DNA of 64,000 bases, taken from positions 63,438,924 to 63,502,923 of the forward strand of contig NC_092349.1 of assembly GCF_963676685.1 (NCBI RefSeq), given 5' to 3'. Within the stretch, counting starts at the first letter, position 1. Every line of letters starts with the position of its first letter. Under the pieces are notes generated by a model. That model did no database searches. It saw only the letters and a program-made list of their open reading frames with translations, and was not told the origin of the DNA. The stretch comes from Mytilus edulis. Its lineage: Eukaryota. Shown in pieces: positions 4,337 through 58,320 of this stretch. A program made the translations under genes and the position numbers.

Positions 4337-5238
4337 TTTATACGACCGCAGAGTTTGAACCCTGAACATTTGGGCAAGTATGGACACAACATTCAAACTT
4401 GATACAGCTCTGAATTTGGATTGTGATTAAAAAGTTAACACAACACAGGTTTCTGACACATAATGAATGTGGTTTAAGAACTTAAACTTAAAAACTTTAA
4501 ATTTTAAATTGTACATTACCTATTATGGTCCAATATCCAAATTCTAAATACATGGTTAGATTAAGCATATCAAAGAACCCCAAGAATTCAATTTTTGATG
4601 AAATCAAATAAAGTTCAATTTTGGACCCTTTACACCTCAATGTGGACCAATTTGATAACCGGACCAAAACATCAAAAATCTAAACATGGTTAGATTAAGC
4701 ATATATCAAAGAACCCTAATATAGACAATTTTTGTTGAAATCAAACAAAGTTTAATTTTGGACCCCAATTTGGACCAACCTGAAAACTGGGCCTATAATC
4801 AAAAATCTAAATACATGTTTAGATTCAGCATATCAAAGAACCCCAAGGATTCAAAATCTAAATACATGTTTAGATTCAGCATATCAAAGAACCCCAAGGA
4901 TTCATTTTTTGTTGATATCAAACAAAGTTTAATTTTGGACCCCGATTTGGTCCAACTTGAAAAATTGGGCCAATAGTAAAAAATATACGTAAATGTTTAG
5001 ATTCAGCACATCAAAGAACCCCAAGGATTCAATTTTTGTTAAAATCAAACTTAGTTTAATTTTGGACCCTTTGGACCTTAATGTAGACCAATTTGAAAAC
5101 GGGACCAAAAATTAATAATCTACATACACAGTTAGATTCGGCATATCAAAGAACCCCAATTATTAAATTTTTGAAGAAATCAAACAGCTTGATACCAATA
5201 TACGACCAAAACATTTTCAATTTTAGCGGTCGTATAAA
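4337..5238. mobile_element. Second copy of the composite element (head 4312-4480, ~130-bp array 4530-5190, terminal hairpin 5209-5237) inside MVP intron 4
   Basis: TTTATACGACCGC lies at 4337-4349. The terminal hairpin is tatacgacc(20 nt)ggtcgtata with GCGGTCGTATAAA at 5226-5238. A solo hairpin of the same type sits at 3273-3309. Confidence 0.5.
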
Positions 5239-5740: not shown

Positions 5741-6130
5741 CTGCAAGATAACAAATTAGATTGATTGTTGGTTGCTTAACGTCCAGTGGCAAATGAACAA
5801 ATAAGATGATAATGTCTTGTCTAATTACGTTGTACATTACTAGTATTTGAAAGGTGAATAATATGACCAGATAACTCTAAGAAATATTTTTAAAATTGTT
5901 TGTTCCTATTATGCTACGTTTTCTTTCTCTATTTTATATAACGTTTTTATGGTGTACTAGTTTATCATCTATTTATTCCTCCGCAAATTTAAATAAACAT
6001 GCAAAATATTTTTTAAATACGAAAATTCAAACGATCGCATCAACAAAAGAAACACGAAACATGCACCAATAGATCAACGATCAATTTATCTTCTTTTTAT
6101 CGTCATTCCACTGATTGGAACTATATTTAC

Positions 6131-6481
6131 CTTATCTGTTAGAACATAGGCGTTGACAACATCTACAACTTCTTCATAGGCTCCTGGGAGATAAGCTCCG
6201 GTCTTCTTCACCAGCCATTCCTCACCGGTTACCCTAGCAACACCTTGTCTATCAATAGTCTCCTTCCTAGCCCTCAATCTAATGGCCTGGTTAGGTCTAA
6301 TGACTGTGGCTCTGACAGTCTCCTCAATAACAACCTCTTTCCTTGGGATATATGTTCCTGGTCCTTCAAATAGCCACTCATCCCCAGCTGTTCTCTTTTC
6401 TTCATCATCGTCTTCAAAGTCTAGAATAGCTCTGAGCCGAAGAGCGGAGTTGGCTGCTACCACCTTCAGGGAGGTTACAAC
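6131..6481 (-). CDS. MVP: Major vault protein, coding exon 3 (vault repeat domains)
   Basis: Translation [117 protein letters not shown] contains the hallmark MVP repeat motifs ([31 protein letters not shown]). The exon is 351 nt, phase 0. The acceptor is cgtag and the donor GTAAAT (revcomp of 6125-6130). Confidence 0.9.
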
Positions 6482-8269: not shown

Positions 8270-8460
8270 AAATCAATTCGGAAAGTCCATAATCACATCA
8301 AAATCATATAACAATACACATCAAAAACGAATGGACAAGAACTGTCATATTCCTGACTTGGTACAGACATTTTCACATTTAGAAAATGGTGGATTAAACC
8401 TGGTTTTATAGCGATAACCCTCTCACTTTGATGACAGTCTCATCAAATTCCGTTATATAT
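8270..8460. repeat. Dispersed repeat family copy (other copies 25330-25650 in opposite orientation, 43115-43270) within 350 bp upstream of MVP ATG
   Basis: aactgtcatattcctgacttggtacagacattttcacatttagaaaatggtggatt (8340-) is the revcomp of ...aatccaccattttctacatttgaaaatgcctgtaccaagtcaggaatatgacagtt (25480-25540). The 25xxx copy ends in a nested hairpin gtcgagcctgcaacttttgttgcaggaagctcgac (25617-25650). Confidence 0.6.
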
Positions 8461-11400
8461 TACATTGATGCGTTAACTAAACAGACACAAAAAATAAAAT
8501 GGTCAGAATATGGGTACATTATTCATCATCGTATAACAATTTTAAAAGGAACAATTTAACACAACACAAAAACATCTATCTACAAACACATTCATTGATT
8601 TGTGTGTCTGACGTCAGAAAATTTTATACGTTGCATAGATTTGTCGTTCAATGTGCATACAAACAATTTTAAAATTTACATAGGCAATGTTAGCATACAG
8701 GGTTAAAAAATCAAAAGTATGTAAGAATAAATTTCAGAAATAGACCGAGATTTAAAATAGTTCAAAAGTTATATAATAGAATTTATAAGAATCCACAAAT
8801 AGTTCATTCCACTACGCGATTGAATGATTTTGACGTTTGTGGTTCAACGTATTTTGAAATTCATAATAGAAATATATCATATTAATGACATAAAATAGAA
8901 CACTATCAGACTTGACGGGATCTCTTAAAGTACAGAGTCACGTTATAAGAACCAAAGAAATACATATGCAATTTTTTTTATAATTAATTTTTTTTGGGGG
9001 GGGGGGGGGGATTGGTAAAAACGACAAACCGTAAGATGCATAGTAAGGTATGACAACTTTGGAAAAGCCAGTTTTCCAAGCACAAAATATGTTACTAGAT
9101 AGACCCCCCCCCCCTTGAAACCATCCACCTACCAATGGAGCAATCTCGTATACAACCATCCGGTATCAAGAAAATGTATTAACCTGTTAAGCCTCAATTG
9201 CAATTAGTGATATTTTCCCTCAAATCCACAATTATGATTTTCAGCAAAGTAAATCCACATCCCGTTAAGATTGATGGATTGCTCTTTACGTATCGTCCAG
9301 TGACAGATAGTTCATGCATGTTTGTGCAAAATCACATTTGGAGGAAGTGATTTAAAATATTGGATTTGTGAAATTGAAGGTTTCTTAGGAATTCTCACTG
9401 TTACATGTATGTGCATTGATTGGTTGTCGGATATGAGGAAATTAAATATTCAATTGAAGGAAGGAAGACGTGTCTTTAGAACCCATTTAGTAAGGATGAC
9501 TTAATATGAGTGGCGTGTTGAAAAGTGCATTTATCAAAATGTGAGATTTTCAATAAAATTAAAAGTTATTGCACAACACAAAATGTCGTCTCATCGATAG
9601 TGTGTGTCGTAACAAGTTGGTTGAATATTACATTCAGCAAAAATTAAGTAAATACAAAGACAAGTCGCAAATCTACAATAATACGGTTTATACTTGTCTT
9701 ATGTACGTATTTAAATCTGTATAATATCGTACCTGAATAAATCTTTACCTACATCTTCATTTATCATGTTTATAATATTTTACTTACCTTATTTATTCAA
9801 TTTACTGCTTGAAACTTAAAAACAAGATCTAAATATAGGAATGACCGACAAATATTCTTACCTGGATAAAAAAAATGCTGACGGTATTGGCTATACCCTA
9901 GCTATGTTGGCTGGATACAAGCCAAACAATTAGATCAATATAAATGTATTAATATACGTGTTCATAACCACTCAGGTGTTTAATTGTTTACATTTAAAGT
10001 ACTTTCAAATTTAACATTTTTCACATTGTTTAAACGAGGAAGTTGCGTTGGTTCTGCATTGATTTAAAAGATACATTGCACGCCCCTGTTTAACATAAAT
10101 TGAAAGTAAATAGTAGATGTATAGTAAATAAGATTACGATAACTGAATAGCATATGTTGTTTTTACCTTATTTAGACAGACATGTGTACCCGGTCATGAC
10201 CAGGCATGACCAAAGACTTTAAGTAATGTTCTAATGTTTCATTCCTTTAATTTTCTGCACATTTTTTTCAATCAGCATTTTAATTTTACTCTGTACATTT
10301 TTAGCAAACCCATTCATTGCAAACCACTCTGGGCCCTTACATTATATACATATATACCCAACAATTACACCCATTACAATATCGAAACACGTTATAAGGG
10401 TTTTATTGAAGAAAAAATTACAGCGAACATGTACATTTCAATTACATACTATATAACTTTTCAATCAACTATAGAGTGTGCTAATCTTCAATGAATATTT
10501 TATCTAGTATCGGTAGGTTATTTAACTCTCGATTTATCTAATAATGTATACTTGTGTATATATATATTTAATCAATAAGATGAGAAATAAGCAAAAATCC
10601 ATAGGATATATTATAGTTACTAAACCTTACCTTTTCAATCAGAGCTGCACGAAGAATAGTCTTATCAAAATAGAAATCTCGAATTAAGTAAATGTTGATT
10701 GAGATTTGCTGACTGTTAGAGTGGTGCAATCGAAAGAAATAGAGTAAAGGCTAAAAATAGAAACTGGGGATTTCACAACCGGATACAAATAATATATATG
10801 CGTCACAATGTTTATTTCAAATGTGAGTTTTACAGTGCTTTTTGTCTCGCCTGGGACGAAATTCTCAGTGTCACTGTGAGATACAAGTGGAATTTACTAT
10901 TTATTTCCTGCGGTGCCGTCTTCACAGCCTGAACTATGTGTTTCAAGCTTAACTTGTTTCAAATGATGTGCTTCAATTATAAATTAAGTGAGGGCTATTC
11001 GCCTCAAAATTTTACTATCCAAATTGAATTTTTCTCATGTTTAAGAAAATCAAAAACTTTATTTAAAAAACGACAATGAAGGTTTATACAATATATTTGG
11101 GAAAACTCTCTGATGAGAATTATATCAATATTATAAATACGGATTTAAGTTAAAAACTAACAGAAAATACATTAATTTTGATCGCCTATTTCACCCTGCT
11201 CATAAGAGGGAGGAGGGCATTTTTACATTTGTTGTTAACTGTTCAACGGACCCTCTATTGCCTCCCCTCTTATATCAGCGATGTGTGAGGGAACGTATTC
11301 AAATTTATTTACTTTTATCAAGTATAAAACTGTCTAATGGGAGGGTGAAATACTAGTAATAATAGACCAATAAACAGATAATAGGGTTTTCATCATGATA

Positions 11401-11799
11401 TGTACCGTAAAATAGTAGCTGTGAAGTTCAATCACCAAATATAAACCAAAATAAAAAGATTTTCCTTTATGCAATATAGAGGCGGAAGATTAATTCCATT
11501 TTGTCATAATGTGTGCACAACTCAGAACGAAAAAGTTTATAGATATTTCTTATACTCTAGTTTTAATTCAATAGTGTCAAGCTATCCAGCAATTCTCATC
11601 CAGATATTCTCTTTATAAAAAGTTATCCTGCAATTGTGTTTGGAATACTACTTGAACGACAATTTTTTTTCCCTTCATAACTCATAGTTTTTGACTATTT
11701 TTGTTGAAAGAACGAATAATAAAGACTAGTTTCTCAATTGTTTGTAAAACAATTGAAAGGTCTTTCCTGTAAAAGTGATGTTTTCTTATTGTACTTTGT

Positions 11800-12330
11800 A
11801 CGACCTTTCGTTTGATATACGACAAGCATACCTTCTGAAACTTTTACACTTAATGACCTCATCCGCCTACATTTTTGAGATCGGAATTATGATGTATGGA
11901 ACAGAGTAGATGAGCTTTCATTTGATAGGTGACAACACCATGTTCTAGAAAGTTTGATTTTTGCACTTAATTACCCTATCCAACTAATTTTTGGAGGTCG
12001 GGAATTTGATATTTCAAATGTACACATCATGACCTATCATTTGATATACAACCCTATCTTAAAAGAACATTTATTTTTTGCACTCAATGACCCCATCCAA
12101 CCCATTTTTGGAAGACGTCAATTTGAAATTTGAAATGTACGCTTTATGTTCTTTCATTTGATATGCGACAACCTTACTATCTGAGAAATTTGAATGTTTT
12201 GCACTAAATGACCCCACCCGTCCCCCTGGGATGAAAAGGGGGTTTAAAATTTTCATTTTTAAGTAGAGTTTATTAAGACCTTCAATTTGATATATCAGAT
12301 GACCCCATTTGACAAAGTGCAAATAATGAT
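11800..12330. repeat. ~125-bp tandem repeat x ~4 (..tttgcact.aatgacc.catcc...tttgatat.cgaca...)
   Basis: Direct reading shows four successive similar units. Confidence 0.7.
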
Positions 12331-12456
12331 GCAATATCAACTATATAAATAGAAGTTATGAAACTTACAAAGTCTATGCAAAACTTGAAAATTTCAAATT
12401 GATTTTTTGATGTTTTTTTTCCATGGAATGTTTTTGGTATTTGGTAAAACATATAA

Positions 12457-18818: not shown

Positions 18819-19957
18819 CGTTTACTATGGCAAGCCGTTCTCGTCAAAACTATGAATAAACCATTTTTCGAAAAATTTACACACTGAGAATTAAATACTT
18901 CAAAACACACACTGAGAATTAAAAAATACACACTGAGAATTAAAAATTACACACTGAGAATTAAAAATTACACACAGAAAATTAAAATTACACACTAAGA
19001 TTATACAAAAATGAAAAACACACACTGATAATTGAAAATTACACACTGAGATTTCAAAAAGACACACTGAGAATAATATAAATAAACTGAAAACACACAC
19101 TGAGAATTTGAAATTACACACTGAGATTTGTGCGCACTTTTTATGCGCACATATCTAATTAGCATACTTAATCTGAATCTATTACAAGCTTAAAACAACT
19201 AGGGGACAGCACTCAAAAAATGTTTATAAAAAAACTTTAGAAATACAAGAACAAGAAAAATACCCACTTATTCTTAATACAAAATATAACCAAATGGTGA
19301 AAAACTTTATTAAAATTATAAGAAAACATTGGAACAATCTGTAAAAAAACAAAGAATGCAAAATTTTTATTCAAGTGTCTCAATAGCATATAAACGTAAC
19401 AAAAATATAAAAGATTAACTTGCGAAATCAGGGTAACAGTTGGAAGACTTTTCAAAAGGGACCCATGCTTAAACGGTTTAAAGTAGAAAAAAATCCCGAT
19501 ACACTGGTAGTAATGATCTGAATTATAGGCAACAAACTTATGAATATGAGCGATGTTAAGTCTTGAAATTTATTACGACTGTTGGTTGAAGGAATCGCAT
19601 TTCATTATAATGACAAGAGTTCTTGAGATCAAGATATTAATCTGTTGAATTATTCATTTCATGAATATTCATTAGTAATTTGCATATTAATCTCAGTGTG
19701 TATTTTTGAAATCTCAGTGTGTAATTAAGAATTCTCAGTGTGTGTTTTTCAATTTATTTCATCTCAGTGTGTCTTTTTAAAATCTCAGTGTGCAATTTTG
19801 AATTATCAGTGTGTATTTTTTATTCTTTTAAATCTCAGTGTGTAATTTCGATTTATCAGTGTGTTATTTTAGGTTTTAAAATCTCAGTGTGTATTTTTTT
19901 TTCGAAAAAAGGGTTTAAGCATAGTTTTGACGAGAACGGCTTGCCATAGTTTACTAT
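18819..19957. mobile_element. Foldback-like element: ~310-bp inverted arms (18819-19129 / 19688-19957) made of ~20-bp sub-repeats (acacactgagaattaaaaatt)n, ~560-bp unique middle
   Basis: The left arm gtttactatggcaagccgttctcgtcaaaactatg...(cacactgagaatt..)x11 is the revcomp of the right arm (aatctcagtgtgt..)x9...catagttttgacgagaacggcttgccatagtttactat. Confidence 0.7.
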
Positions 19958-21751
19958 CGGAGGGTCACAATTTCAGCAGATAAGACACAGAACTGTTGAG
20001 ACAAGATATCAATTTTTTTAACCAAACAATCTATATCCTCATCTATGAAAGAACAAATGACTTATTGTTTTAGACAAAACCCATCTGGTATCAAGGACTT
20101 TTTGGTTTGACTTCTATCCAAGTACTTTTAACATGCGACTTCAATGATTTTACAGAAGTCCATGATGTTGTTACCACCTGACATAACAAACTGGTACACA
20201 CTATACTTATATATGGCAAAAATATATCAAACACTATTTTACAATTGCCGATCGCCCACAAAACCAGATAGACACTGGATTTTATTATAATCTATCATTA
20301 ATACACATAATATTTACACATAATATTTTATGCAAATAGTATCTATGAATTGAAAAAAAATTACTCTGTCATAAACGAATCCGCCGGCCAGGAAAAATCA
20401 ACAACCAAGTTCACTGGTGTCAACGTGATAATCGTAACTGCAATAACGATCATCCCAATATGGCGGACACAAATTTAGGAAGTTACCTTAGTCGATATGG
20501 AAACCTGTGTTCAAACCCAAATGCTCGGAAGATCGTCTCGAGAGGTGAACATTGGACAGTACTGAAAAATAGCTTATGTTTACATAAACAAAATGTCAAC
20601 AAAATGTGTACTAGTAAACAAAATACCAATATATACATGTAGTACAAAACAAGAAAAATCAAACAATAATGAACCAACATTAAACTGAACTTAACCAGTT
20701 CGAAGTTGGCGAAATAATGGTTTAATAGGGAAATTAACCCGCTAAAATGACCACTCACGTGATACTACAATTGATATCATGTGTCCATACATATACATTT
20801 TGTATTTGAAAGACCCGTTAGTACCATAATTTTCCTCTATACTTCGAAACGCGGAAAATTATAAGAACAATTTGGTTGAATCACAGACGTCATACATGTG
20901 TTTTATGTAGGGCGAACTTGCAACCAAACAGGCAAATACATTGGCCACACATTACTGGTGATGAACTTCTCAGGATAATATAATAATACTTTTTAAATTT
21001 CAAAATATCGTTCAATTAATGTCAACAAGGCAGGGACACGTCGCTTTCAGTGATTATTTGTAATGGGAATCTTAATTATTTCTTTATGCCAGCATAATGG
21101 TTCCGGTCAAATTGGCGTTAACCCGATAGAGAGTAACATGTTTTAGTTTGACAAAGAGCTTGTCTTGATACCTGTGAATACTGTAAATCACTGGTTATTG
21201 TTGGTGGTACAAGTACAAAAAATGAGTAATTTTGTATCTGCATCCTTTGTGTCATTCTGTAGTAGTAGAGACGGTTTAGTTTTAGGCACCCCAAAAACGC
21301 AGGGCGAGAGGGCGCAGCCAAATATGGCCAACACCCGCCCCTTTATCGAAACGTCCCCTCCGGCTGACCAAATATGGTCAGCTGACTAGGACGACACAAT
21401 ATGACTCATAAGTCCATCGTTCGTAATTACGCTCAGTTGGAATGACTCATATCCACAAATAAGGTAAGAACGTTACAATATGACTGGTCAGACGTGACTC
21501 ATGTTGATCGGGGATAATTCAAAAACGGAAGGGTGATATCCATATACGGACATGTATCGAATCAACCAATGGCAAAGACGGAACGAAAGTATTGTTTTAT
21601 GCAACCACAAAAACGCAAGGCGCTAAGACGCTGACGTCATATGAACAGTATGACTCACGTAGATCTTTGCCAATTCTAGTATGAAGGGCTATATATCAAA
21701 ACGGAAGCACCAGATGTCGGATTATGACTCTTGGACCACCATATGATGAAT

Positions 21752-22078
21752 TCCATATATGGAAAGCGACCACAATACCCTATGACCATATATGGAAATT
21801 ATGACCAAATTTGGTAAGAACCTTATTTTCACTCAAAATAAACATACATGACCATATATGGAAATCGACAAAACAACCTATGACCATATATGGAAATCAT
21901 GACCAAATTTGGTAAAAACCTTATTTCCGTTGAAAAATCAAAATAAAATACATGACCATATATGGAAACCGACCAGATACCCTATGATCATATATGGAAA
22001 TGATGACCAAATTTGGAAAAAAACTTTTATTTTCACTCCAAAATCAAAATAAACATATATGACCATATATGGACAGCA
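21752..22078. repeat. ~110-bp tandem repeat x3 carrying perfect CArG boxes (CCATATATGG), left arm; followed by two CACGTG-containing 98-bp repeats (22079-22200)
   Basis: The unit catgaccatatatggaaatcgac..ccctatgaccatatatggaaatcatgaccaaatttggtaa.aaccttatttt.c is repeated. CCATATATGG occurs ~7 times. aggtcacgtgatcgtatcgaggaac occurs twice. Confidence 0.8.
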
Positions 22079-22325
22079 GGTCACGTGATCGTATCGAGGA
22101 ACGTTAACTCTGGTACAAAACAAGGGAAGCAACTCTGTATATATATCTCTCGTGGAGTGACAATTCAACGAGGCAAGGTCACGTGATCGTATCGAGGAAC
22201 TCTGATACAAAAAAGGATAGCAACTCTTCATGATGTGAGCATCAATCACCGATTAATCGTATCGTGTTCGGGGCAAATAGAAAAAATACCAACACAGATG
22301 TCAGTTTCATATATATTTATTACAT

Positions 22326-22766
22326 TCATTCGTACAATGCAAGCAGTTTGTCGTCGTTACTCATCGAGTCTCTAGACGAAAAATCTTTCACAATGTCTTC
22401 CATGCTAATGTTTCTATATCTCATCTTCACGAAATGTACACAATAGAGTCCGCATGTATCGGATGATCCCTGTTGCACTTGAGTCGTACTGAATCTGTAT
22501 TGAGGTCCATTGGCGATGAGCACGTTCCTGAAGCGACGAAGGTAATACTCCGGAGAACGTCCGAACGAATCGAAAAATTCGACGGGTCCCTCTCGCGGGA
22601 AGTGGAACGCCACCCAGTGAATGCGCTTGTCGTCGCAGTCGTCCGTGTTGACGACGAAACTGCGGGGCCTGTTCGAGACTTCATCCGGCAGTTCATCGAC
22701 ACAACACACGGTCGCCGGCAGGTCTTCGAGATAACACTCCAGTTCGTATCCGAAGGTTCCCTCCAC
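22326..22766 (-). CDS. Adenain-like (peptidase C5, adenovirus/Polinton-type) cysteine protease domain ORF, left palindrome arm
   Basis: The 146-aa ORF MEGTFGYELECYLEDLPATVCCVDELPDEVSNRPRSFVVNTDDCDDKRIHWVAFHFPREGPVEFFDSFGRSPEYYLRRFRNVLIANGPQYRFSTTQVQQGSSDTCGLYCVHFVKM... matches adenovirus protease motifs recalled from memory. These are the catalytic His (GGVHWMAFAW ~ RIHWVAFHF), the Asp/Glu region (LFEPFG ~ FFDSFG) and the Gln...Cys region (QSVQGPNSAACGLFCCMFL ~ TQVQQGSSDTCGLYCVHFV). The ORF is GC-rich and intronless, in an AT-rich setting. Confidence 0.75.
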   Translation of the reverse strand: MEGTFGYELECYLEDLPATVCCVDELPDEVSNRPRSFVVNTDDCDDKRIHWVAFHFPREGPVEFFDSFGRSPEYYLRRFRNVLIANGPQYRFSTTQVQQGSSDTCGLYCVHFVKMRYRNISMEDIVKDFSSRDSMSNDDKLLALYE

Positions 22767-23005
22767 GCCGTCGTCTTCCGTTCTGCATCGTTTGGCGGAT
22801 GGTTCTTCGCCACAGTCCCTATCTTGATGGATCTCAAGTCAATGACTTGTTCACGGAAGGATCGCATCATCGGAACCTGTCGGTGTTGGCTGTGAATCAG
22901 AACCTGTATTTCGGGAAGGATCCGACTCAGAGAAGAAACTGTCACTACCTGGTCCTCTTCGACAATCCAGTCGATCGCCAGCCCGTCGCCACGCTAGGTA
23001 GACAG

Positions 23006-23774
23006 ATGTATCCGAGTCAGAGACACCTCTTGATGCAAACGTTCCGAGAGGCCACGAGGAGACCCTTCGGATACCTTGTGGTGGATCTGAAGGCCGCTAC
23101 ACCCGAACACTTGAGATTACGTAGCGACGTCTTGGGCGGAGGCGAGGACGACGCCGAAGCCGAGGACGAAGACGTCGATTCCACCGGAAGCGAATCGAAC
23201 ACCATGGAATTCGAGGAAGAAGACGTCGGAAGCGAATCGGACCTGATGGCTTGCCGCGCATGCGGACTGGTATTTGCGCACGTCCGGGGACTTGAGATCC
23301 ATCAAGAGAGGGACTGTGGCGAAGAACCATCCGCCAAACGATGCAGAACGGAAGACGACGGCCTGGAGGGAACCTTCGGATACGAACTGGAGTGTTGTGT
23401 CGATGAACTGCCGGATGAAGTCTCGAACAGGCCCCCGCAGTTTCGTCGTCAACACGGACGACTGCGACGGCAAGGGCATTCACTGGGTGGCGTTCCACTT
23501 CCCGCGAGAGGGACCCGTCGAATTTTTCGATTCGTTCGGACGTTCTCCGGAGTATTACCTTCGTCGCTTCAGGAACGTGCTCATCGCCAATGGACCTCAA
23601 TACAGATTCAGTACGACTCAAGTACAACCGGGATCATCCGATACATGCGGACTCTATTGTGTACATTTTGTGAAGATGAGATATAGAAACATTAGCATGG
23701 AAGACATTGTGAAAGATTTTTCGTCTAGAGACTCGATGAGTAACGACGACAAACTGCTTGCATTGTACGAATGA
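23006..23774 (+). pseudogene. Second copy of the adenain-like protease gene (right arm), with acidic N-terminus and C2HC finger; frame broken by +1 C in a C-run (23432-23436)
   Basis: Frame A from ATG 23006 reads MYPSQ...GGGEDDAEAEDEDVDSTGSESNTMEFEEEDVGSESDLMACRACGLVFAHVRGLEIHQERDCGEEPSAKRCRTEDDGLEGTFGYELECCVDELPDEVSNRP. The protease domain RSFVVNTDDCDGKGIHWVAFHF...CGLYCVHFVKM...LALYE then continues in the +1 frame to the stop at 23774. The left copy has gcccc where the right has gccccc. Confidence 0.6.
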
Positions 23775-24034
23775 ATGTAATAAATATAAATGAAACTGAC
23801 ATCTGCGTTGGTATTTTTTCTATTTGCCCCGAACACGATACGATTAATCGGTGATTGATGTTCACATCATGAAGAGTGGCTTCCCTTTTTTGTATCACAG
23901 TTCCTCGATACGATCACGTGACCTTGCCTCGTTGAATTGTCACTCCACGAGAGATATATATACAGAGTTGCTTCCCTTGTTTTGTACCAGAGTTAACGTT
24001 CCTCGATACGATCACGTGACCTGCTGTCCATGAC

Positions 24035-24360
24035 CCATATATGGTCATATATGTTTATTTTGATTTTGGAGTGAAAATTAATGTTTTTTTTCCAAATTTG
24101 GTCATCATTTCCATATATGATCATAGGGTATCTGGTCGGTTTCCATATATGGTTATGTATTTTATTTTGATTTTTCAACGGAAATAAGGTTTTTACCAAA
24201 TTTGGTCATGATTTCCATATATGGTCATAGGTTGTTTTGTCGATTTCCATATATGGTCATGTATGTTTATTTTGAGTGAAAATAAGGTTCTTAACAAATT
24301 TGGTCATAATTTCCATATATGGTCATAGGGTATTGTGGTCGTTTTCCATATATGGAATTC
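24035..24360. repeat. Mirror copy of the CArG-box tandem repeats (right arm)
   Basis: This is the reverse complement of 21752-22078 (tttccatatatggtcat... units). Confidence 0.8.
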
Positions 24361-25769
24361 ATCATATGGTGGTCCAAGAGTCATAATCCGACATCTGGTG
24401 CTTCCGTTTTGATATATAGCCCTTCATACTAGAATTGGTAAAGATCTACGTGAGTCATACTGTTCATATGACGTCAGCGCCTTAGCGCCTTGCGTTTTTT
24501 GCGGTTGCATAAAACAATACTTTCGTTCCGTCCTTGTCATTGGTTGATTCGATACATGTCCGTATATGGATATCACCCTTCCGTTTTTGAATCATCCCCG
24601 ATCAACATGAGTCACGTCTGACCAGTCATATTGTAACGTTCTTACCTTATTTGTGGATATGAGTCCTTCCAACTGAGCGTAATTACGAACGATGGACTTA
24701 TGAGTCATATTGTGTCGTCCTAGTCAGCTGACCATATTTGGTCAACCGGAGGGGACGTTTCGATAAAGGGGCGGGGCTTGGCCATATTTGGCTGCGCCCT
24801 CTCGCCCTGCGTTTTTGGGGTGCCTAAAACTGAACCGTCTCTACTACTGTTCGGTCTAATATCGTAAAACGTCTATGCAATTTTTACACTCTTTCAGTGT
24901 TTAATTGAAACAAAGAAATGTCCAAACAAAACCCGGAATGTTCTAGCCCTAATGAAGAGTGGCAATTTTCCTAAGCAGAAAGATTTCTTTTCTTGTGGTG
25001 CAATGATTTGCCTATACAGCAAAATTGGTAAGATATTAGTCTTGTATCTATTGTCCACACAACGCACGATTCCTAGCAAGAATGATCAATGTTTCAATGT
25101 CAGTGTCATGCTCTGAGTCAATTTAACTTTTAACCCAATTTGCTTGTCCTTGGTGTGCACATGATTTTTTTTTCGGTTTATAATTCCCTGCTAGGTTCAG
25201 CCTCGTTTTGGATAAAATTATCCGTCTGATCAACAATGTCGTGAAATGTTTACACTATTTACTGGCTTTGTAATAACACGAGCAACACGACAGGTGCTAC
25301 ATGAGGAGTAGGATATGCTTACCTTTCTGATCACCTGAAATCACTCCTAGTTTTGGATGGGGTTCGTGTTCTTGTACCCCTATTTGTGACATTTTGTCCA
25401 CCCATCATTGTCAATAAAATGGAATTTGATGCAACTGTCGTACAAGTGAGAAGTTTACCGCTATAAAACTATATGTTCAATCCACCATTTTCTACATTTG
25501 AAAATGCCTGTACCAAGTCAGGAATATGACAGTTGTTGATCACTCGTTTGATGTGTTTTATCATTTGATTTTGCCATTTGATTAGGGACTTTCCGTTTTG
25601 AATTTTCCTCAGAGTTCAGTATTTGATTTTTGTCGAGCCTGCAACTTTTGTTGCAGGAAGCTCGACATAGGGATTGTGATCCGGCGACGGCGGCGTTAGC
25701 TAACTTCTTGAATGCTTCATACTTAGTATATGGATGCCTCATGTTACGAAGTTTCCTTCAGTCACATGT

Positions 25770-26870
25770 CCAATGTCCTTGACCTCATTTTCATGGTTCA
25801 GTGACTACTTGAAAAAAGGTTAAGATTTTTTTGTAATGTTAAATTCTCTCTTATTATGAGTAATAGGATAACTATATTTGGTATGTGCGTACCTTGCAAG
25901 TTCCTCATGCCCGTCAAACAGTTTTCACTTGACCTCGACCTCATTTTATGGGTCAGTGAACAAGGTTAAGTTTTGGTGGTCAAGTCCATATCTCAGATAC
26001 TATAAGGACTGTAAGGTGTTCATGTCCAACTGGCAGGTGTCATCTAAATTAATCTTGACCTCATTTTCATTGTTCAGTGATTATAGTTAAGTGTGTTTTG
26101 TTTTGATCTGTTTTTCTTATACTGTATGCAATAGGTCTACTATATTTGGTGTATGGAATGATTGAAAGGTGTACATGTTTAGCTGGCAGGTGTCAGCTGA
26201 CCTTGACCTCATTTTTATGGTTCAGTTGTCTTTGAGTTTGGATCTTTTTCTCTAATACTTATTGCAATAGGTCAACTATATTTGGTGTATGGAAATATTT
26301 TATGATCTATTTGTCAGCCGCATAGGTTTTATTTGACCTTGACCTCATTTTCACGGTTCATTGCTCAGTGTTAAGTTTTAGTGTTTTGGTCTGTTTTTCT
26401 TAAACTATATGCAATAGGTCAACTATATTTGTTTTATGGAAGAATTGTTAGCTGTACATGTCTGCCTCATATGTAAATATAAAAAAGAAGATGTGGTATG
26501 ATTGCCAATGAGACAACTATCCACAAAAGATCAAAATGACACATGGTTCATCTGATAACAACATCATGGACTTCTGTTAAATCATTGAAGTCGCATGTTG
26601 GACGTTAAAAGCACTTTGATAGAAGTTAAACCAAAGCGTTCCTTGAAACCAGATGGTTTTGTTCAAAACAATAAAGTTTTATTTGACCTTGACCTCATTT
26701 TCACGGTTCATTGCTCAGCGTTAAAGTTTAGTGTTTTGGTTTGTTTTTCTTAAACTATATGCAATAGGTCAACTATATTTGTTTTATGGAAGAATTGTTA
26801 GCTGTACATGCCTGCCTGATATGGTTCTTCTGACCTTGACCTCATTTTTATGGTACATTGGTCAATATTT
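25770..26870. repeat. Satellite-like family, ~150-bp units (..gaccttgacctcattttcacggttcattgctcagtgttaagttt...tatgcaataggtcaactatatttg..), x ~7; two near-identical copies at 26330-26470 and 26680-26820
   Basis: Direct reading. An inverted partial array of the same family is at 57940-58320. A SINE-like insertion sits at 26465-26660. Confidence 0.75.
26465..26660. mobile_element. SINE-like dispersed repeat (~190 bp; tail ...tgtgtcattttgatcttttgtggatagttgtctcattggcaatcataccacatcttctt in revcomp)
   Basis: The same tail is at 16560-16640(+), 40600-40700(+), 48990-49080(+) and 44575-44640(-). The head is shared with 20040-20190. Confidence 0.55.
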
Positions 26871-28905
26871 AGTTTTCTTGGTTAAGTTTATGTGACAGTT
26901 GTTATAAAGCTATAAATTTAGGACTATCAAAATAATATCAATGATTGTAAAGAAGGCAAGACATTTCAGCAACTGAGGAATTGACTAAAATTGTGTAAAT
27001 AATAATAACCAGGATATATAGCTTGGACAACTTATTAAAGCAATTGAACTCAAAGTAATTAGCCGTTGCAAAGTGTTGAAGAAGAGATAAATGTGAAAGA
27101 CAAAAATTGCAATTGCCGATGCCATAATACACTCACCTGCTCAAACAAATGATAAACTATTTTTGTATTTTGTAAATAATATGTAATGTATGGTCATTGA
27201 ATAACAATTCTATGGTGGTGTGTATCACTGCTTTTTAAAAACCAAAATCCATATATTATAAATTATTGTACAAGTTATTATAAGTTAATTTTCGTCAAAT
27301 ATTGTACAAATTGTATTTTTTACAGGCACTTTTTCAATTTGTGCAACTTACAACTTGTACATAGTCAAAATACAAATTATAATTTGTACATTTTTTTTGG
27401 TACAATATTTGACAATTTTAATTTGCACAAAATGATAAACTTGAATACAACATATATAAACGTTAACAATTAAATCTTCATGAAATAGTTATCAAAGAAA
27501 ATTATGCTTCGTTAGAATTTAACAATGACTTTTAGCATGTATTCTTTTTTTCTGTATCATCCAGATAACAAGACAAGAATAAAGAAATCAAAACATTGAC
27601 ATATCTAAAACGTTTGAGTAAACGACAATGCACTTAGGACATTTTGTTCATTTCTGTTGAGCAGCAGTTTTATTTCAGCTTTGATCAATCTTTTTTCAAT
27701 TAAATTGTAGCATGAAATTTTAGTACTTAATAGGAACATGATGTTGTTGATGTGTAGAACTAAATCATGCGCATTAACAATGTGTCAGATACGATATATT
27801 TAAGCACCCTAATATAAAAATAAGGGGATGGCGTATTATTGTCAACAATCCATCAGAGGTCAAATCAGGAATATATAGGCGTATAAATGCTGTACCCTTG
27901 AACCAGGAGAAAACAGTCATACCACACGAGACGAAAATCAGACACCAACGGTTTAATAGATAACAATACAATATACGAAAACAAATATGATGGACATGAC
28001 CATATGACAACCACTGAATCACAGGCTCCTAGCATGGACTAGACACATGAAGAATGAGGCAGAGCTTTCTTAATTCTTAGTTACTAGATCTCCAGCAAGG
28101 ATGCAATGAAAAATATATAAAAAAAAATCACATGATAGTCTTAACAAAATATGATGATTGGATATAATTGTTGATGAAACAACTATCTTAGTAACAAGCA
28201 ACAAATCTGTGATAATAAATTAATACATTCTTGAAATTATACACATCTACCATTGCAATCTTAACGCATTTCCACCAGGGCTGTCCAACACTTTGATTAA
28301 AATTTACCCTTTCGTGAATGATGTACGTGCATATGTGGGATTCACAGTTTTGCTGTGAATTCTGAGTATTTTAGTAGACTCTGCATATAAAACAATATAT
28401 AATTAGAGGCTTTTGATGCTGGAACATCAACATATTATCGATAAAGAAATGACAACTCATCAACAAACTCGGGCTTTTAGAAAAGTTAAGAAATCCGATT
28501 GTTCATTGCACGTTGTATATGTTTGATTACAGGACAGAATAAATCAGATCCATACAGATAAAGAGGACAGTTTGGTCAATCTGTCTCGTGCTTTATCCAT
28601 TTTCCTGCATTTTCCTCAGTAACCTACCACAGGCACTTGTTTCTGTCAATGTGGGGTTTACTATCCATACCAGTACAAAAAAACACAAGGTAGCTAACGG
28701 AAACTTTCAATGTGTTCGCTTCAACCAATATTTTTTTAATTTCCCTTGATTTTTTCACAAATAAAAGTACACCAGTCTGTCGGTAATTGATTTATCTTTA
28801 CAATGAAACAACTTTCACGTACCTTGAGAATACCCCTCAAACAGAATAACACACTTCAGATGAAAATTATTGACCTTTTTCCAGACCATTGAATTTGTAA
28901 GGACT

Positions 28906-31392: not shown

Positions 31393-32711
31393 GTAAGTTC
31401 TTTTTATTGGTTATCTTTAAACGTAATTGCTTACATAACAACCAAACATAATTAATAGAAAAAAATCAATATAGTGGTCTGAACAAACGTATTAGAAAAT
31501 TAACTTAGAAACCTGCAGAACGTTCTATTTTGCCGAGAGTCAAATTATAATTCTCCTCTTTGAATGTTTTATTATTTATTTTTTTTTACATTCAGTGAAA
31601 ATTCAAATTTACTGAAAAGTTTGAAAAACATATTAAATAAGAAGCATTTGTGTAATCTTTTACTACAATGTCATGAATAGTTGGTATATAATATTCATAT
31701 ACGAAAACTTTTAACGCCGCCCTAATCATGATGGCTCATGTACAAAATAAACCAGATAAATGCATGGACATTTGACGACAGTTTTGAAGGCAATTTTGAT
31801 TATAAATAATAGATATAAACAACTGGTCGGCATAATCATAAGTCAATCAAGAACATGATATCACAAAGAAAAAGTTTTCCATTGAGACAAAAACACAACA
31901 ACACGATGATGTCATTTAACAGAGTAAATAGAAGATGTATAATTAGATAACCCTGTCCTACGCCAATTCATTTTGTAACTGTATAGTACAATGCTCTATA
32001 GTATACTCAATATTGGATATTGGAATTTTTAAAGACTGGAGGAAAATACCAAAGGGATATTTAAACTCATAAGTCGAAAATGAACTATAGCAATGACGTA
32101 CATGGCAAGACAAAACGACTAAAAAAAATCAAAAAGAAAATCTACAAAACAAAACAGAGAAAACCAAAAACTGAGTCACACGGATCCAACTAAAAACCGG
32201 GATGATCTCAAGTGCTCCGGATGGGTAAGCAGATCCTGCTCCACATGTTGGTCATGCAAGTACGAACCCGGTTATAAGTCTTATTCAGCTGGTCACATTC
32301 AAGGAACAGAGGACGGGATTGACATTACGACATGTTTTAGAGCACACCCCTCGTCACTATTTTGGGTGATAAAGCATCAATGAGTTTAAAATTTCAAATT
32401 GTCAAAATTCGTCGTTTTAGTTCATGAACAGAAAAATACAATAAGAGAATATGCAAATTCATCAAAGGAAAATTTAGTATAAGTTTCTCAGTAAATCAAG
32501 GATGTATGCGATGAGCTGTTTGTAACCAAAAGGGACATTAAAAGATTATACAAGCCGACGTTTCTCAATCGTTTCAAAATTTATCTAAAGAAAATGTAAG
32601 ATATATAGGATTGTTAGGAATCATGTCAGTATCGAAGGTAAAAGTATCCTCTCTAGAAGTCTGTTTAATTTTCGTATTAATTAACATCTATACTGATATT
32701 TCTATTTTTAG

Positions 32712-33308
32712 GCGATTGTGGAGGGAAGTCAGATATAATATTTGCTATTCCTGGGAACGCAGACATTCCGGGGGAAGAATTCTTTCCGTTTGAACGATTT
32801 TTAACCATGCTTACAGATTATTTTCAAATCGACAGAGATAATGTAAATGTTGGTCTGATATTATACGGTAGAGAAGCTGTTGCAATCAGTTGGCCGCAAC
32901 CAATGAAGGACCAAACACAAACGAATACCAGAATAAGCCTTCTTGCGCAAAGAGAATTATACAATGGAAAACTAAAAGGAGCAGCAGATGTCAAAGCGGC
33001 ACTTTACTTAATGCGACAAATGTTCAGAAATCCATCCGGTTATCCTCTGGTACTACCTAGACCCGACACCAAACAAATTGGAGTAATGTTCACCTATGGC
33101 TCAGTTCAGGCAGATATGATCCCCGATGTCATTGCAGCTACAAAACAGTTTAAGGAAGCTGGAATCGACATGTATTCAGTTGGACGGATGCCAAATGGTG
33201 AATGGTTTCCTGAGATAGCCTCTCATAAATGTAATGTTTTCTCAATGGAAAGTTACTCGGAAGGTCTAAGAGGTCTTCTCCCTTATATCGGGAGCAGTAT
33301 ATGCACAG
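32712..33308 (+). CDS. Secreted VWA + chitin-binding protein, exon 2 (von Willebrand factor type A domain)
   Basis: The acceptor is ctatttttag. The exon joins exon 1 in phase 1 (g+gc = G). Translation GDCGGKSDIIFAIPGNADIPGEEFFPFERFLTMLTDYFQIDRDNVNVGLILYGREAVAISW...KQIGVMFTYGSVQADMIPDVIAATKQFKEAGIDMYSVGRMPNGEW has VWA-domain spacing (DIIF..G / VGLILYG / TYGS..D / GIDMYSVG). The donor is cag|GTTAGT at 33309. Confidence 0.75.
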
Positions 33309-33704
33309 GTTAGTTTATTTTTGCATGTATTTTAAATCGATTTTTTATATTAAAAAAAAAATAGACACACATCCTTGTTTTTGTTTTTTGCTATGAATCG
33401 GTACTGTTAATTTTGTTTCGTTGATCATCATCGGAACTTCAATCTGATTTATACATTTTGTGTTTCTTGTTTTCTTTTGTATCCAAATACTTCTTGTAGA
33501 ATTGTATATTTTATAATTGTTTCAAAAAGAAAATTCAGAATAAACAAACAAACTGATATTTGTTCAAAATTTTATATTTTATTTATATACCATGTGTCAT
33601 ATACAAATAGAAAATATGATAAAAAGTAAATCAATAGTCTACAAGACACTACAGACACCCAAAGACATAGCAAGACGAACTCCACCAAAAACTGAGACTG
33701 ACAG

Positions 33705-35272: not shown

Positions 35273-36956
35273 GTAAGTAAAGCATGGTACATATTAACCG
35301 TCAGATATATACCTGGATATGAAAGTGCCTCTCTTAAATTACATTGAAAAAGAAAAAGATAAAAAAAAATATTTTGAAAACGAGTAAAGATATTTCACAT
35401 AATTAAAATCATTTGTCTAGGTACAAGTTACATATATATAAACTATATATATAAAGACAATCGACCATATTTATTGCACAAACACAAACACATTTACATT
35501 AAATGTTTATGGATATACAAATACATGTCTTTTATAAACTTGAATATGTACGCTTTTGTAACGCTTGTATGAAAGATCGTTCAGGGCTAACCTCAACATG
35601 ACCGGAAGGAAACCATCCCATATCTAGTGTTTCCATGTTTTAAATTTATTGTCAATATTTATGGCTTAATATCCGGGTTGTTTGCGCATCTTTTTTTTAC
35701 GTTATATAAATGAAGAGTTACGTTATGGTACATAAACGGTTGATCCCAATATTGGTAAAGCGTGCTTCATAGAGAGTTTCTTTGGTCAAACAATGGTCCC
35801 TGCAATTTATGTTTGTTTCGCATTTTGTATGTCATGTGAAGCGTTTTAAATAAATTATTTCTTTTCTTGTAAAAGAGGTTAGTTAAACATACTTGAATGA
35901 TCACTTTGATGGTCGAACATCCAAAAATCTGACCGTAAGTTTTTTAGAAGCGATGTCGTCTGCAAACTACGATGTTACTAGGTTTGTATAAATTAATCTA
36001 ATATACTTACAAGTTTTAGCTTTCTAAAAAGCTATGGACTGCTTCGCTACACCCTAATTCAAGGTAATATGTGTGCATGTGGTTGTTGAATTAGTATTGG
36101 AAATGTGGTATTTATAGATATTGATTGATATAAAATGGATGTACTTTAAAAGTGTGCGTTACATACCCATGTTTAAAAAAAAAATCTTTTTTAAAATAAA
36201 ATCAATTATAAATAGACACGACTTTTGATGTGTGCCTTTTTGGAGGTGTGCCTTAAGTTAGATTGTCAGAAAAATACAGATAATACATTTTTGTAAACAT
36301 TGTACTGATAGGAACATTGTTTAGCAAAGCAAATAGTGCAAATTGCAGAGTAACAAAGAAAATAAACACGTATTTAAAATAATTGATATTTCAATATTGA
36401 ATTTGTCTGTAAAATGTATGCATAATAAAATGAACATGAATTAATAACAGTTGATTGGAACTGAAATACACATAGTTAATTTTCCGTCATTTGATGTCTT
36501 ATCCTGGGCAAGAAAAGTCTGTATTTCCTTATCTCATTTAAGCCAATAGCTGTTGGTATATCTCAGCCTCATCATAACGCAACCAATCAGAATCTATACG
36601 TGATAAGTAATTTATTCAAGATGGCCTGTATTTTGACTAAACACTTTGAATTCGTCCTGTCAATGATGTTGGACTGATCTTCGTACATGTGTAGCGCGTG
36701 CAACACACACTTTTCGTTAATATGTCATTTAATACTAAGAAACGTAGAAAAAAAAATCATATATCTGTAATTAATCCTATTTTGCTGGACATTGAGAAAA
36801 CGGAAACAGCGGCTTTTCATTTATTTATGTAAACTAAAGGAGAACAAAAGCAACGTTTTTCTTTATTTATACAGAAAATAAATGAATTATAGTATTTCAA
36901 TGGCATACATCTTTACCATAATATGATATATGACAATTCTTTTATTTTATTTTCAG

Positions 36957-37324
36957 AATTTTGGAAGCCAAGTCCAAACCCGCCAGTTATTTGTCCGTCC
37001 TTGAATGCAATATTTCAGGATCCTTATAATTGTGCTTATCTATTCAAATGCGATTTGAATATTCCTGCGCGTGAAAGATGCCCAACAGGGATGCTCTTTG
37101 ATAACTCAATTAAAGCTTGCAATCACAAAGATGCAGTTCCATGTTACTCAATGATCACGTGTCCAAGTCACATGGGTTTGTTTCCGCATCCAGAAACATG
37201 CAAAAAATTCTTGAATTGTTTCGACAATATTCCATATGTGCAAAAGTGTCCACGTGACCTGTATTTTAACAATGAAACCAAAATCTGCGAAGAAGAGTAT
37301 AAAGTTAATTGCATATTTCACTGA
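36957..37324 (+). CDS. Secreted VWA + chitin-binding protein, terminal exon (two peritrophin-A / ChtBD2 domains), stop TGA 37322-37324
   Basis: The acceptor is ttttattttcag. Translation KFWKPSPNPPVICPSLNAIFQDPYNCAYLFKCDLNIPARERCPTGMLFDNSIKACNHKDAVPCYSMITCPSHMGLFPHPETCKKFLNCFDNIPYVQKCPRDLYFNNETKICEEEYKVNCIFH gives two 6-Cys modules with CBM14/peritrophin-A spacing. AATAAA lies at ~37547. Confidence 0.8.
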
Positions 37325-57012: not shown

Positions 57013-57939
57013 TCCAACCCCTATCTATAGTATGTGTCATTCCGACATTTTACCAATTTTATCAAAATTTGAACTGAAATTATCAGAGATGATATCTGTG
57101 AAATAAAAAAAAAATATTTGACTAGAATATAAAGCCACTGCCCAGCAGTGCATTTCCCACCATCGTCATCATGCAACAAGTTAAAAGAGCTAAAACTAAG
57201 CATTTATCTTACTTTATTTACAACCCTAGAGACTGAGTGTGTCCGGGTGTTATAAAAAAAAAGCTAAAAGACTTGAAACTCAAATGTCACATATTTTACA
57301 TCGCATTTATAAATGGTCTGCAAGGAAAACTTGGCGATTTTACTGCCAATTATTCTCCAATTTACAGGACTTCGGTTCATTTCAGATATAAATAAAATGT
57401 CAAAGCTGGTAATAGGCAGCAATAACATAATCATCCGGATATACGAATCACTAAACGTCATCCTTATACATGTTATATAGGATACAACATCCGTTAACAA
57501 AATATTTTGTACACACGTTGATAATTTTGTATTGGACAAACTTTTTTGAATGAACCCTGCTCTTCAAGTATAAAGGGCAACGTTGGTTATACTTTCAACA
57601 TCGACTTCAATCAAAAGCTTTGAATCTCTAAATGCAAGTGTTCATGCCAAACGCTGACGTGATACCAAATGGACTTAACCTTATACGGGGAAGATAAAAC
57701 CTGTGGATTCCGGTAAAAAAGTTTTGAGCAGGAAATACAAATATAAGATTTTCGGGAGGAACAAAAAATAATTAAAACAAAATATTGCTGGTAAATACAA
57801 ATAAAAGATTTTCAGTCGGAACGAATTTATAGAGTCGGTCGGTAAAGGGCAAACAAATAATATTTTAATTTAAGCCTCAATGTCAGATGAACCATGCCAG
57901 GCAGACATATACAGCTAACAAGGCTTCAATGCAACAATT

Positions 57940-58320
57940 ATAGTTGACCTATTACTTATAGTTTAAGAAAAATAGACCAAATCACAAAAACACTGATCAA
58001 TGAACCGTGAAAATGAGATCAAGGTCAAATAAAACCTGTGCCACTGACATATAGATCATAAAATATTTCTATACACCAAATACAGTTGACCTATGGCTTA
58101 TAGTATTTAATAGATAAAGACCAAAACTCAAAAACTTAATTTTGACCACTGAACCATGAAAATGAGGTCAAGGTCAGTTGACATCATCCCACTAGACATG
58201 TTCACCTTACAATCATTTCATACAACAAATATAGTAGACCTATTGCATAAAGTATGAGAAAAACAGACCAAAACACAAAAACTTAACTATAACCACTGAA
58301 CCATGAAAATTGTCATAAAT
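57940..58320. repeat. Reverse-orientation copies (x ~2.5) of the 25770-26870 satellite family
   Basis: ccactgaaccatgaaaatgaggtcaaggtcag is the revcomp of ctgaccttgacctcatttttatggttcagtg. Confidence 0.7.

Follow-up and report, generated by a model that had tools for sequence, protein, structure and literature searches.

Positions 22326-23774 of a 64-kb stretch of the Mytilus edulis genome (the window, meaning the whole of the DNA analysed) hold two inverted copies of a protease-like open reading frame (ORF) around a GC-rich centre. Inverted-repeat detection and direct alignment of the arms revealed that both copies belong to a 3,588-bp palindrome. The GC content is 52% in the coding interval and 44.5% in the whole element, compared with 31.7% in the rest of the window. 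The two arms, each ~1.58 kb long, are 97-98% identical and have sharp outer boundaries. They differ by 2-3%, through substitutions, a 30-bp indel and a 7-bp indel. Between them lies a 448-bp centre that is present in one copy only. From the outside inwards, each arm consists of a terminus, ~1.06 kb of non-coding subterminal DNA, the protease domain and the second half of a zinc finger. The centre contains the last third of a packaging ATPase, a linker and the first half of the finger. Very probably, the locus is the coding core of a degenerate, non-autonomous and palindromic derivative of a Polinton/Maverick element, from a source family in bivalves. An earlier prediction from the sequence alone (the original prediction) had recognized the inverted pair of protease genes. 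The pair is real, but the repeat is a 3.6-kb palindrome and not the gene alone.

Both copies encode a protease domain of the adenain type. They score above the cut-off of the Pfam profile PF00770 (Peptidase_C5; 21.3 bits), as does their relative P0001 from Mytilus galloprovincialis (31.0 bits), whereas the C48/Ulp1 profile reached at most 14.8 bits on the two copies, under its own cut-off. The motifs HWVAF, FFDSFG and Q-x6-CGLYC are kept in both. In a search of the PDB, a profile of 23 family members matched pS273R of African swine fever virus (ASFV; 5e-8) and adenain (1avp; 1.5e-5). In the alignment to 1avp, the HW histidine corresponds to His54, the aspartate of FFDSFG to Glu71, and Q-x6-C to Gln115/Cys122. 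None of the 23 homologues departs from the His, Gln and Cys; at the acid position (FFDS) most have Asp, and a few copies, probably decayed, have another residue. The AlphaFold model of the left copy has a predicted local distance difference test score (pLDDT) of 82.1 and a predicted template modelling score (pTM) of 0.80. When it was compared with the PDB by Foldseek, adenovirus proteinases took ranks 1-6 (probability 1.0, TMq 0.48-0.65), followed by other clan-CE enzymes. Together, the sequence and model comparisons support the assignment of the domain as an intronless adenain-type (clan CE, C5) protease of Polinton/Maverick origin. In this respect the original prediction of an intronless, relatively GC-rich adenain-type protease, with its three motifs and its catalytic His and Cys in both copies, is borne out.

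The protease is part of a larger gene. On the + strand, the reading frame of the right copy is preceded, in frame and free of stops, by the C-terminal 97-98 amino acids (aa) of a packaging ATPase of the Pox_A32/FtsK-HerA type ((N)DLFTEGSHHRNLSV..QNLYFGKDPTQRRNCHY..GYLVVDL..RLRSDVL), followed by an acidic tract and the finger. This fragment is 96% identical to P0001 and 47% identical to P0075, an ATPase from Pinctada. The loop ORF alone (22799-23430) matched no Pfam family, and the identity of the ATPase is therefore read from its homologues. P0075 and P0074 pass Pfam PF04665 (Pox_A32), and bivalve homologues also touch PF02456. In the window, the ATPase gene is cut at the palindrome junction and the fragment has neither Walker A nor Walker B. 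P0001 is the best database match to the window, with 96% identity over 100% of the reconstructed sequence. It has 413 aa, begins with a Walker A motif MIVSGPTSCGKT (GPTSCGKT) and is one uninterrupted ORF in contig L001. The original prediction saw no further Polinton genes in the window; this is true of the protein-primed DNA polymerase B (pPolB), the integrase and the capsid, but the C-terminus of the packaging ATPase had been overlooked.

In the intact relatives, which include M. galloprovincialis copies with 96% identity, ATPase, C2HC finger and protease are encoded in this order by a single intronless ORF of 404-474 aa, located ~1 kb from one element terminus. In full, the order is an optional N-terminal C2H2 finger and an optional Pro-rich linker, the ATPase, an acidic linker, the C2HC finger and the protease. 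P0004 (474 aa) has the N-terminal C2H2 finger and the Pro-rich linker. The ATPase-finger-protease frame is open in P0004, P0006, P0007 and P0009 despite identities of only 50-70%, which argues for a genuinely fused, selected gene and not a prediction artefact. The finger spacing, C-x2-C-x12-H-x4-C, is present and conserved, with Cys and not His as the last ligand; the Pfam zf-C2H2 profile scored 15.3 bits in P0001 and 24.9 bits in P0075 (cut-off 25.2). Homologues of 500-535 aa from Pecten, Mizuhopecten, Pinctada and Solemya also pass Pox_A32 and contain this finger, but have an acidic/helical tail where the Mytilus family has the protease. Therefore, the finger is an appendage of the bivalve ATPase and not the N-terminus of the protease. 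The acidic tract and finger that the original prediction placed upstream of the right copy are indeed there, but they are not a new N-terminal extension of a protease. An exhaustive representative search found 8,847 relatives of the protease domain. The nearest of these outside the Mytilus cluster are stand-alone proteins of 140-175 aa, and the fusion is thus lineage-specific.

At the ATPase/linker boundary, the sequence SDVLGGG↓EDD (window 23123-23143, also in P0001) matches the adenain consensus (M/L/I)-x-G-G↓x, where the arrow marks the cleavage position. P0004 has LTGA↓G at the same boundary, and the motif is not conserved in P0005-P0007. This sequence pattern is a weak hint at a candidate self-processing site.

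Neither window copy is a complete translatable gene. The left copy has no ATG upstream of its catalytic residues. Its putative Met, taken from an ORF list made with the bacterial code, is a GTG (Val), and its frame is open for 24 more codons upstream. These include the second finger half, LEIHQDRDC, which corrects the earlier description of a fingerless copy starting at an internal Met after a stop. The reading frame of the right copy starts at a fortuitous ATG in the reverse strand of the left arm and continues through the Walker-less ATPase fragment. An in-frame deletion of 30 bp at ~23391/23392 has removed the ten conserved residues YLEDLPATVC. The 30-bp segment is flanked by GTGTT direct repeats, and its placement is ambiguous by ~5 bp. 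In addition, a frameshift was caused by one extra C (gccccc at 23431-23436), where the left copy and an intact relative have gcccc; in the shifted frame, no catalytic motif is damaged. The extra C was correctly noted in the original prediction. It is not the only lesion as was claimed, since the right copy also lacks the 30 bp and starts in a 5'-truncated ATPase. Frameshifts are frequent among the copies of this family (P0003, P0010, P0017 and P0033). Five non-synonymous and two synonymous differences separate the left and right copies; these small numbers are compatible with neutral decay. The protease domains at this locus are expected to be inactive as proteins, whether or not the extra C is a sequencing error.

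Table 1. Features of the palindromic element in the window.
Feature	Position	Strand	Remarks
Whole element	21261..24848		two inverted copies of one element end and a 448-bp centre
Left arm	21261..22840	-	terminus, subterminal region, protease, second finger half
Right arm	23289..24848	+	mirror of the left arm
Loop (unique centre)	22841..23288	+	from inverted-repeat detection and arm alignment
Left terminus, AGTAGTAGAGACGG	21261..21274	+	(AGT)2 Maverick-type end motif
Right terminus	24835..24848	-	reverse complement of AGTAGTAGAGACGG
104-bp tandem repeat, left arm	21753..22073		3.1 copies, subterminal, with ATGACCATATATGG motifs
104-bp tandem repeat, right arm	24035..24355		mirror copy
Left protease pseudogene fragment	22326..22838	-	170 open codons and stop; PF00770 27.9 bits
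Predicted catalytic residues, left copy	His 22617-22619, Asp 22569-22571, oxyanion Gln 22473-22475, Cys 22452-22454	-	
30-bp segment encoding YLEDLPATVC	22708..22737	-	in the left copy and intact relatives; conserved across homologues; absent from the right copy
ATPase C-terminal fragment	22841..23134	+	homology to P0001 and P0075
Acidic linker, GGGEDDAEAEDEDVDSTGSESNTMEFEEEDVGSESDLMA	23135..23251	+	linker of variable length and sequence at the equivalent place in homologues
C2HC zinc finger, CRACGLVFAHVRGLEIHQERDC	23252..23317	+	C-x2-C-x12-H-x4-C; second half within the right arm
Right protease pseudogene	23318..23774	+	stop at 23772-23774; PF00770 29.4 bits

The ends of the palindrome link it to the Polinton/Maverick elements. 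The 14-nt motif AGTAGTAGAGACGG occurs twice in the window, where 0.01 occurrences are expected, and both are located at the outer ends of the palindrome, at 21261 (+) and 24848 (-). The window termini read AGTAGTAG, and an end motif of the AGTAGTAGAGACGG type is also found at the element ends in the related loci L002, L003, L004, L008 and L009. An (AGT)2//(ACT)2 end motif together with target site duplications (TSDs) of 6 bp is the published Maverick signature (PMC8097293). In Pinctada, L003 (2966-13643) is a 10.7-kb element whose terminal inverted repeats (TIRs), ~520-680 bp long, are 98-100% identical; it ends in AGTAGTA and has a perfect 6-bp TSD, TTTGCT. Its genes encode pPolB, an ATPase of the same family and an rve+chromo integrase. 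Homologues of the Pinctada-type pPolB were found in M. edulis and Mytilus trossulus. At the M. edulis locus L010, pPolB comes first, then an ATPase that has no protease, and a remnant of a chromodomain. In the window, tblastn with the Pinctada pPolB as query found no pPolB, tblastn and the Pfam scan of ORFs found no rve integrase, and the Pfam scan found no capsid gene. The scan covered 75 window ORFs of at least 75 aa outside the coding core (22329-23771) and detected only the host domains Vault, VWA and CBM_14.

Related elements in Mytilus provided insights into the architecture. L002, from M. galloprovincialis (UYJE01005831), is a canonical element: it measures 4,212 bp, its TIRs have 199 bp, its termini read AGTAGTAG and its TSD is AATTTT. 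It carries a CARD-domain ORF, a TBP-like ORF, a 140-aa ORF and the C2H2-ATPase-finger-protease gene. L004, L008 and L009 are head-to-head palindromes of two protease-proximal ends, and L007 keeps a partial one. The central junction is homologous in all four: on one side it lies ~53-55 bp upstream of the 140-aa ORF, on the other within the part of the ATPase that holds the CCG repeat (Pro-rich linker). L004 is bounded by a perfect 6-bp TSD, ATTGAT, so its palindrome was inserted in one piece. Between the protease and 21593/24516, the window arms match these copies at 96-98.5% identity; for the left arm, the identity to the arms of the M. galloprovincialis loci L004, L007 and L008 is 97.5-98.5% from 21593 inward. 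The window structure equals L004 without L004 8570-10165, that is, without ~1.6 kb across the centre. The terminal ~330 bp of the window arms are a different terminal variant from that of L002 and L004 and end in the same motif. We also considered 21593/24516 as the element terminus, because the homology to L002 and L004 ends there. This was rejected: L002 and L004 continue with a different terminal segment that they share, and the real ends carry AGTAGTAG.

The 140-aa ORF (MDEFYLFVNSGDS...DDHVFCLLHFRKK) is located upstream of the fusion gene in L001 (9374-9796), L002 (9545-9973) and L004 (9342-9761, -), and is not present in the window. It is kept at ~55-75% identity in 19 homologues. It has no Pfam match, and a PDB sequence search with ORF172 gave no match; the structure-based search alone was informative. 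In the model (pLDDT 81.7), the fold is an all-beta, jelly-roll-like sandwich. The structures that match it best are a 161-aa protein, so far uncharacterised, from Drosophila-associated adintovirus 2 (E 7.5e-9, TMq 0.68) and a capsid chain of PBCV-1; small capsid-associated NCLDV proteins are among the nearest folds. The modelled fold suggests that the ORF may encode a small jelly-roll virion protein.

Other observations on these relatives were made. In L002, the CARD ORF (8439-8774, Pfam 5e-11) and the TBP-like ORF (8885-9292, Pfam 5.9e-9) follow the left TIR and precede the 140-aa ORF; they look like cargo genes of host origin in a TIR/TSD-bounded Polinton derivative. In L005 (Mytilus coruscus, CACVKT020003478), fragments of the 140-aa ORF lie on both sides of the ATPase-protease gene in opposite orientation (9070-9668 and 11232-12337). 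Inverted rearrangements thus seem recurrent in the family and extend to a second Mytilus species.

The most parsimonious history that we infer for the window copy has three steps, and the palindromic form would have arisen once or a few times. An inverted duplication would, presumably as the earliest event, have turned an element with short TIRs into a palindrome with long TIRs. This form would then have reached several sites, with an autonomous element presumably supplying the integrase and polymerase in trans. Later, the window copy would have lost ~1.6 kb of its centre and gained point mutations, the 30-bp deletion and the 1-bp insertion. How the inversion arose is speculative. Because the junction position fits, fold-back or template switching at the self-complementary CCG/GGC of the Pro-rich linker may have been involved, during protein-primed linear replication or repair.

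Several observations weigh against this reading. The window element has no TSD; its flanks are TTCTGT and GTTCGG, and a search at the termini that included 1-bp shifts reached at best 5/6, for TTCTGT and TTCGGT with an offset. Therefore, integration of the palindrome as one unit is not established for the window copy. L008 and L009 likewise have no TSD. A BLAST search with the window flanks yielded no paralogous empty site; its only matches were unrelated repeats of dispersed or satellite type. The difference in the terminal ~330 bp means that the window copy is not a simple deletion product of the L002 or L004 copies. Furthermore, none of the Mytilus loci examined has a pPolB, integrase or capsid gene in linkage with the fusion gene, so that the autonomous partner is an assumption. 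L010 was the one Mytilus locus of autonomous type encountered; its ATPase lacks a protease, and this copy is itself degraded. We also considered a full-length Mytilus Polinton with very long ATPase-protease TIRs that has lost its interior. This is conceivable but unsupported: there is no pPolB or integrase by the fusion gene in L001, L002 and L004-L009, and the only pPolB-linked Mytilus ATPase seen, that of L010, is without protease.

The palindrome may alternatively have formed in place, by an inverted segmental duplication or template switch, or by two independent head-to-head insertions of one subfamily and deletion of the DNA between them. The missing TSD of the window copy, which together with those of L008 and L009 is the main unexplained point of the three-step history, speaks for such an origin, and so do the 2-3% divergence and the several indels between the arms. 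The two ends of L009 carry different types of terminal region, which fits chimerism or recombination, and the window junction (22840/22841) is not the one found in L004, L007, L008 and L009. However, compared with L001 the arms share derived substitutions (Leu for His, Arg for Met and Ser for Leu), and an unusual terminal stretch of 330 bp is common to both, which makes them sister copies. The head-to-head arrangement recurs, with one junction in common, in at least four further loci, of which one has a perfect 6-bp TSD. Furthermore, one internal deletion of 1.6 kb in the shared form reproduces the window structure exactly. Formation in place is, in our judgement, unlikely. An assembly artefact, through mis-joining or a long read that was chimeric or folded back, is barely credible. 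Palindromes and homopolymer errors are typical of long reads, but here the arms are 97-98% and not 100% identical, with substitutions and two indels between them, and the same architecture recurs at several loci of the independent M. galloprovincialis assembly.

The original prediction interpreted the locus as an isolated or captured protease module, whose right copy would be an intact zinc-finger-protease of ~255 aa if the extra C were a sequencing error. As this interpretation would have it, the Peptidase_C5 match is real, both copies retain their catalytic motifs, and the interruption of the frame lies at a homopolymer. It is nonetheless very improbable. The right frame runs upstream without a stop into the ATPase C-terminus, the intact relatives are ATPase-finger-protease proteins, and the finger goes with the ATPase in the protease-less bivalve homologues. 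The subterminal non-coding DNA and the termini were duplicated together with the gene, and frameshifts are found in other copies of the family as well. Even after repair of the C-run, the product would start at the fortuitous ATG and be without Walker A and B and the ten conserved residues. The locus is the 3' part of a single ATPase-zinc-finger-protease ORF from a TIR-bounded, Polinton-derived element, duplicated as a mirror image.

Comparison with known systems places the element near several groups. Polinton/Maverick elements (Orthopolintovirales) were reportedly described by Kapitonov and Jurka in 2006 and by Pritham and co-workers in 2007. Typical Polintons have ~15-20 kb; the window element has 3.6 kb. 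Like them, the window element has (AGT)2 ends and TIRs, and the related elements L002, L003 and L004 have 6-bp TSDs. The combination of an adenain-type protease with an A32/FtsK-HerA-type ATPase is also shared, although the window has only the C-terminal 97 aa of the ATPase, and the Pinctada relative with the same ends has pPolB and the rve+chromo integrase. Unlike them, the window element has no pPolB, integrase, capsid or TSD, and its 1.58-kb TIRs contain the protease gene. In vertebrate Mavericks, as surveyed in PMC8097293, the ATPase and the protease are separate genes in different modules, whereas the Mytilus source family has them in one ORF.

The protease resembles adenain (MEROPS C5) and ASFV pS273R (C63), both of clan CE, in its predicted fold and in the aligned His/acid/Gln/Cys arrangement. 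It differs from them in sequence (at most ~25% identity), in size (a ~130-aa core compared with the 204-aa adenain), in the Asp where adenain has Glu71, and in being fused downstream of an ATPase in the intact relatives. The ATPase shares with the Pox_A32/adenovirus IVa2-type enzymes the PF04665 match of the bivalve homologues, and Walker A and the C-terminal block QNLY..GYLxxDL are conserved. Unlike these enzymes, the bivalve proteins have an N-terminal C2H2 finger, a Pro-rich linker and a C-terminal C2HC finger.

Adintoviruses are reportedly animal Polinton-like viruses, described by Starrett and co-workers in 2021. They have a similar gene set of ATPase and adenain, and the 140-aa ORF (ORF140) matches the adintovirus 2 protein structurally; the Mytilus mini-elements showed no double jelly-roll (DJR) major capsid gene, pPolB or integrase. 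No close relative was found when IMG/VR viral contigs were scanned with P0004 by single-sequence patterns, without an alignment-based scan. Defective long-TIR or foldback derivatives occur in protein-primed linear replicons, as in adenovirus defective genomes with inverted terminal duplications and in the extension of inverted terminal repeats in linear plasmids. By analogy, the inverted duplication of one end would give two identical functional termini and an asymmetric centre, as in Mytilus. Unlike those derivatives, the Mytilus product is integrated in the chromosome and amplified, and its mechanism is a proposal. Searches of the literature found nothing specific on an ATPase-protease fusion or on palindromic Polinton derivatives. 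The ATPase-finger-protease fusion of the source family and its palindromic long-TIR form are, modestly, novel variants.

A number of other features are located in the element and the window. The 104-bp repeats of both arms contain several copies of the near-palindromic ATGACCATATATGG(A/T)(C/A)AT; such motifs might conceivably be candidate sites for the element's zinc-finger proteins or integrase. An inverted repeat at 20062-20181 and 26548-26674, with 52 nt at 92% to ~120 nt at 85% identity, lies ~1.1 and 1.7 kb outside the palindrome ends. The two parts could be the TIRs of an older element in which the palindrome is nested, or chance repeats. A tandem or dispersed repeat family with 70-87% identity occurs at 25709-26930 and 57877-58310 of the window, at 643-1062 of L001 and at 12878-13940 of L002. 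In both the window and L002 it is found downstream of the element, which may be a coincidence or reflect an insertion preference for the satellite.

A separate, unrelated inverted-repeat structure at 18824-19950 has outer arms at 18824-18875 and 19899-19950 (88%) and, inside them, mirrored arrays of a ~35-40-nt unit with ACACACTGAGAATT. It looks like a foldback element, resembling a miniature inverted-repeat transposable element (MITE), or a palindromic satellite. Host exons are located at 6089-6481 (-), 32681-33310 (+) and 36893-37321 (+). Their domains are Major Vault Protein repeats (Vault 3.6e-37, Vault_2 4.9e-26), VWA (3.8e-12) and the chitin-binding peritrophin-A domain CBM_14 (5.8e-20). 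Along with a DNA identity of 96-98% to M. galloprovincialis contigs, these exons indicate Mytilus as the source genome. The ORF at 61315-61764 (-) has a Cys/His-rich motif, RFCSLCNNRQIGDEYHFIFECKFF, reminiscent of the C-terminal region in some ORF2 proteins of retrotransposons, and no Pfam match at E<=0.001. The ORFs at 1221-1730 (+) and 4725-4973 (+) are ~60% identical to each other, and LSLILDPLDL...FENSTK units recur within 1305-1733. Both probably belong to a dispersed or tandem repeat rather than to a gene.

The locus in itself is ordinary. It matters little as such, being another decayed Polinton-derived repeat in a bivalve genome, and the palindrome could at most be a source of hairpin RNA or of rearrangement. 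Bivalves have the highest reported load of Polinton-type sequences (bioRxiv 10.1101/2025.04.19.649669). In mollusc annotations, such ORFs appear as 'C2H2-type domain-containing protein', 'Ubiquitin-like protease family profile domain-containing protein' or 'zinc finger homeobox protein 4-like'. The practical lesson is that they should be masked as Polinton-derived.

At the level of the family, three points may interest Polinton and adintovirus specialists. A packaging ATPase and a maturation protease are made as one polypeptide through an acidic spacer and a zinc finger, from an ORF that has stayed open across ~50% divergence. Small TIR/TSD-bounded elements keep morphogenesis genes without polymerase or integrase. 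And a palindromic form with long TIRs has spread. A broader, tentative possibility, which we hold to be improbable, is that the 4-5.5-kb Mytilus elements are satellite-like descendants of Polintons that carry the morphogenesis set only, some with host-derived cargo (the CARD and TBP-like ORFs of L002), and depend on autonomous Polintons to replicate and integrate. Their palindromes, that of the window among them, would be fold-back or hairpin errors at the CCG repeat in extrachromosomal, protein-primed replication. The morphogenesis set would then consist of a small jelly-roll protein and a single chain of packaging ATPase, zinc finger and maturation protease. In that case, the head-to-head palindromes would indirectly indicate that replication of bivalve Polintons as linear episomes or viruses is still going on.

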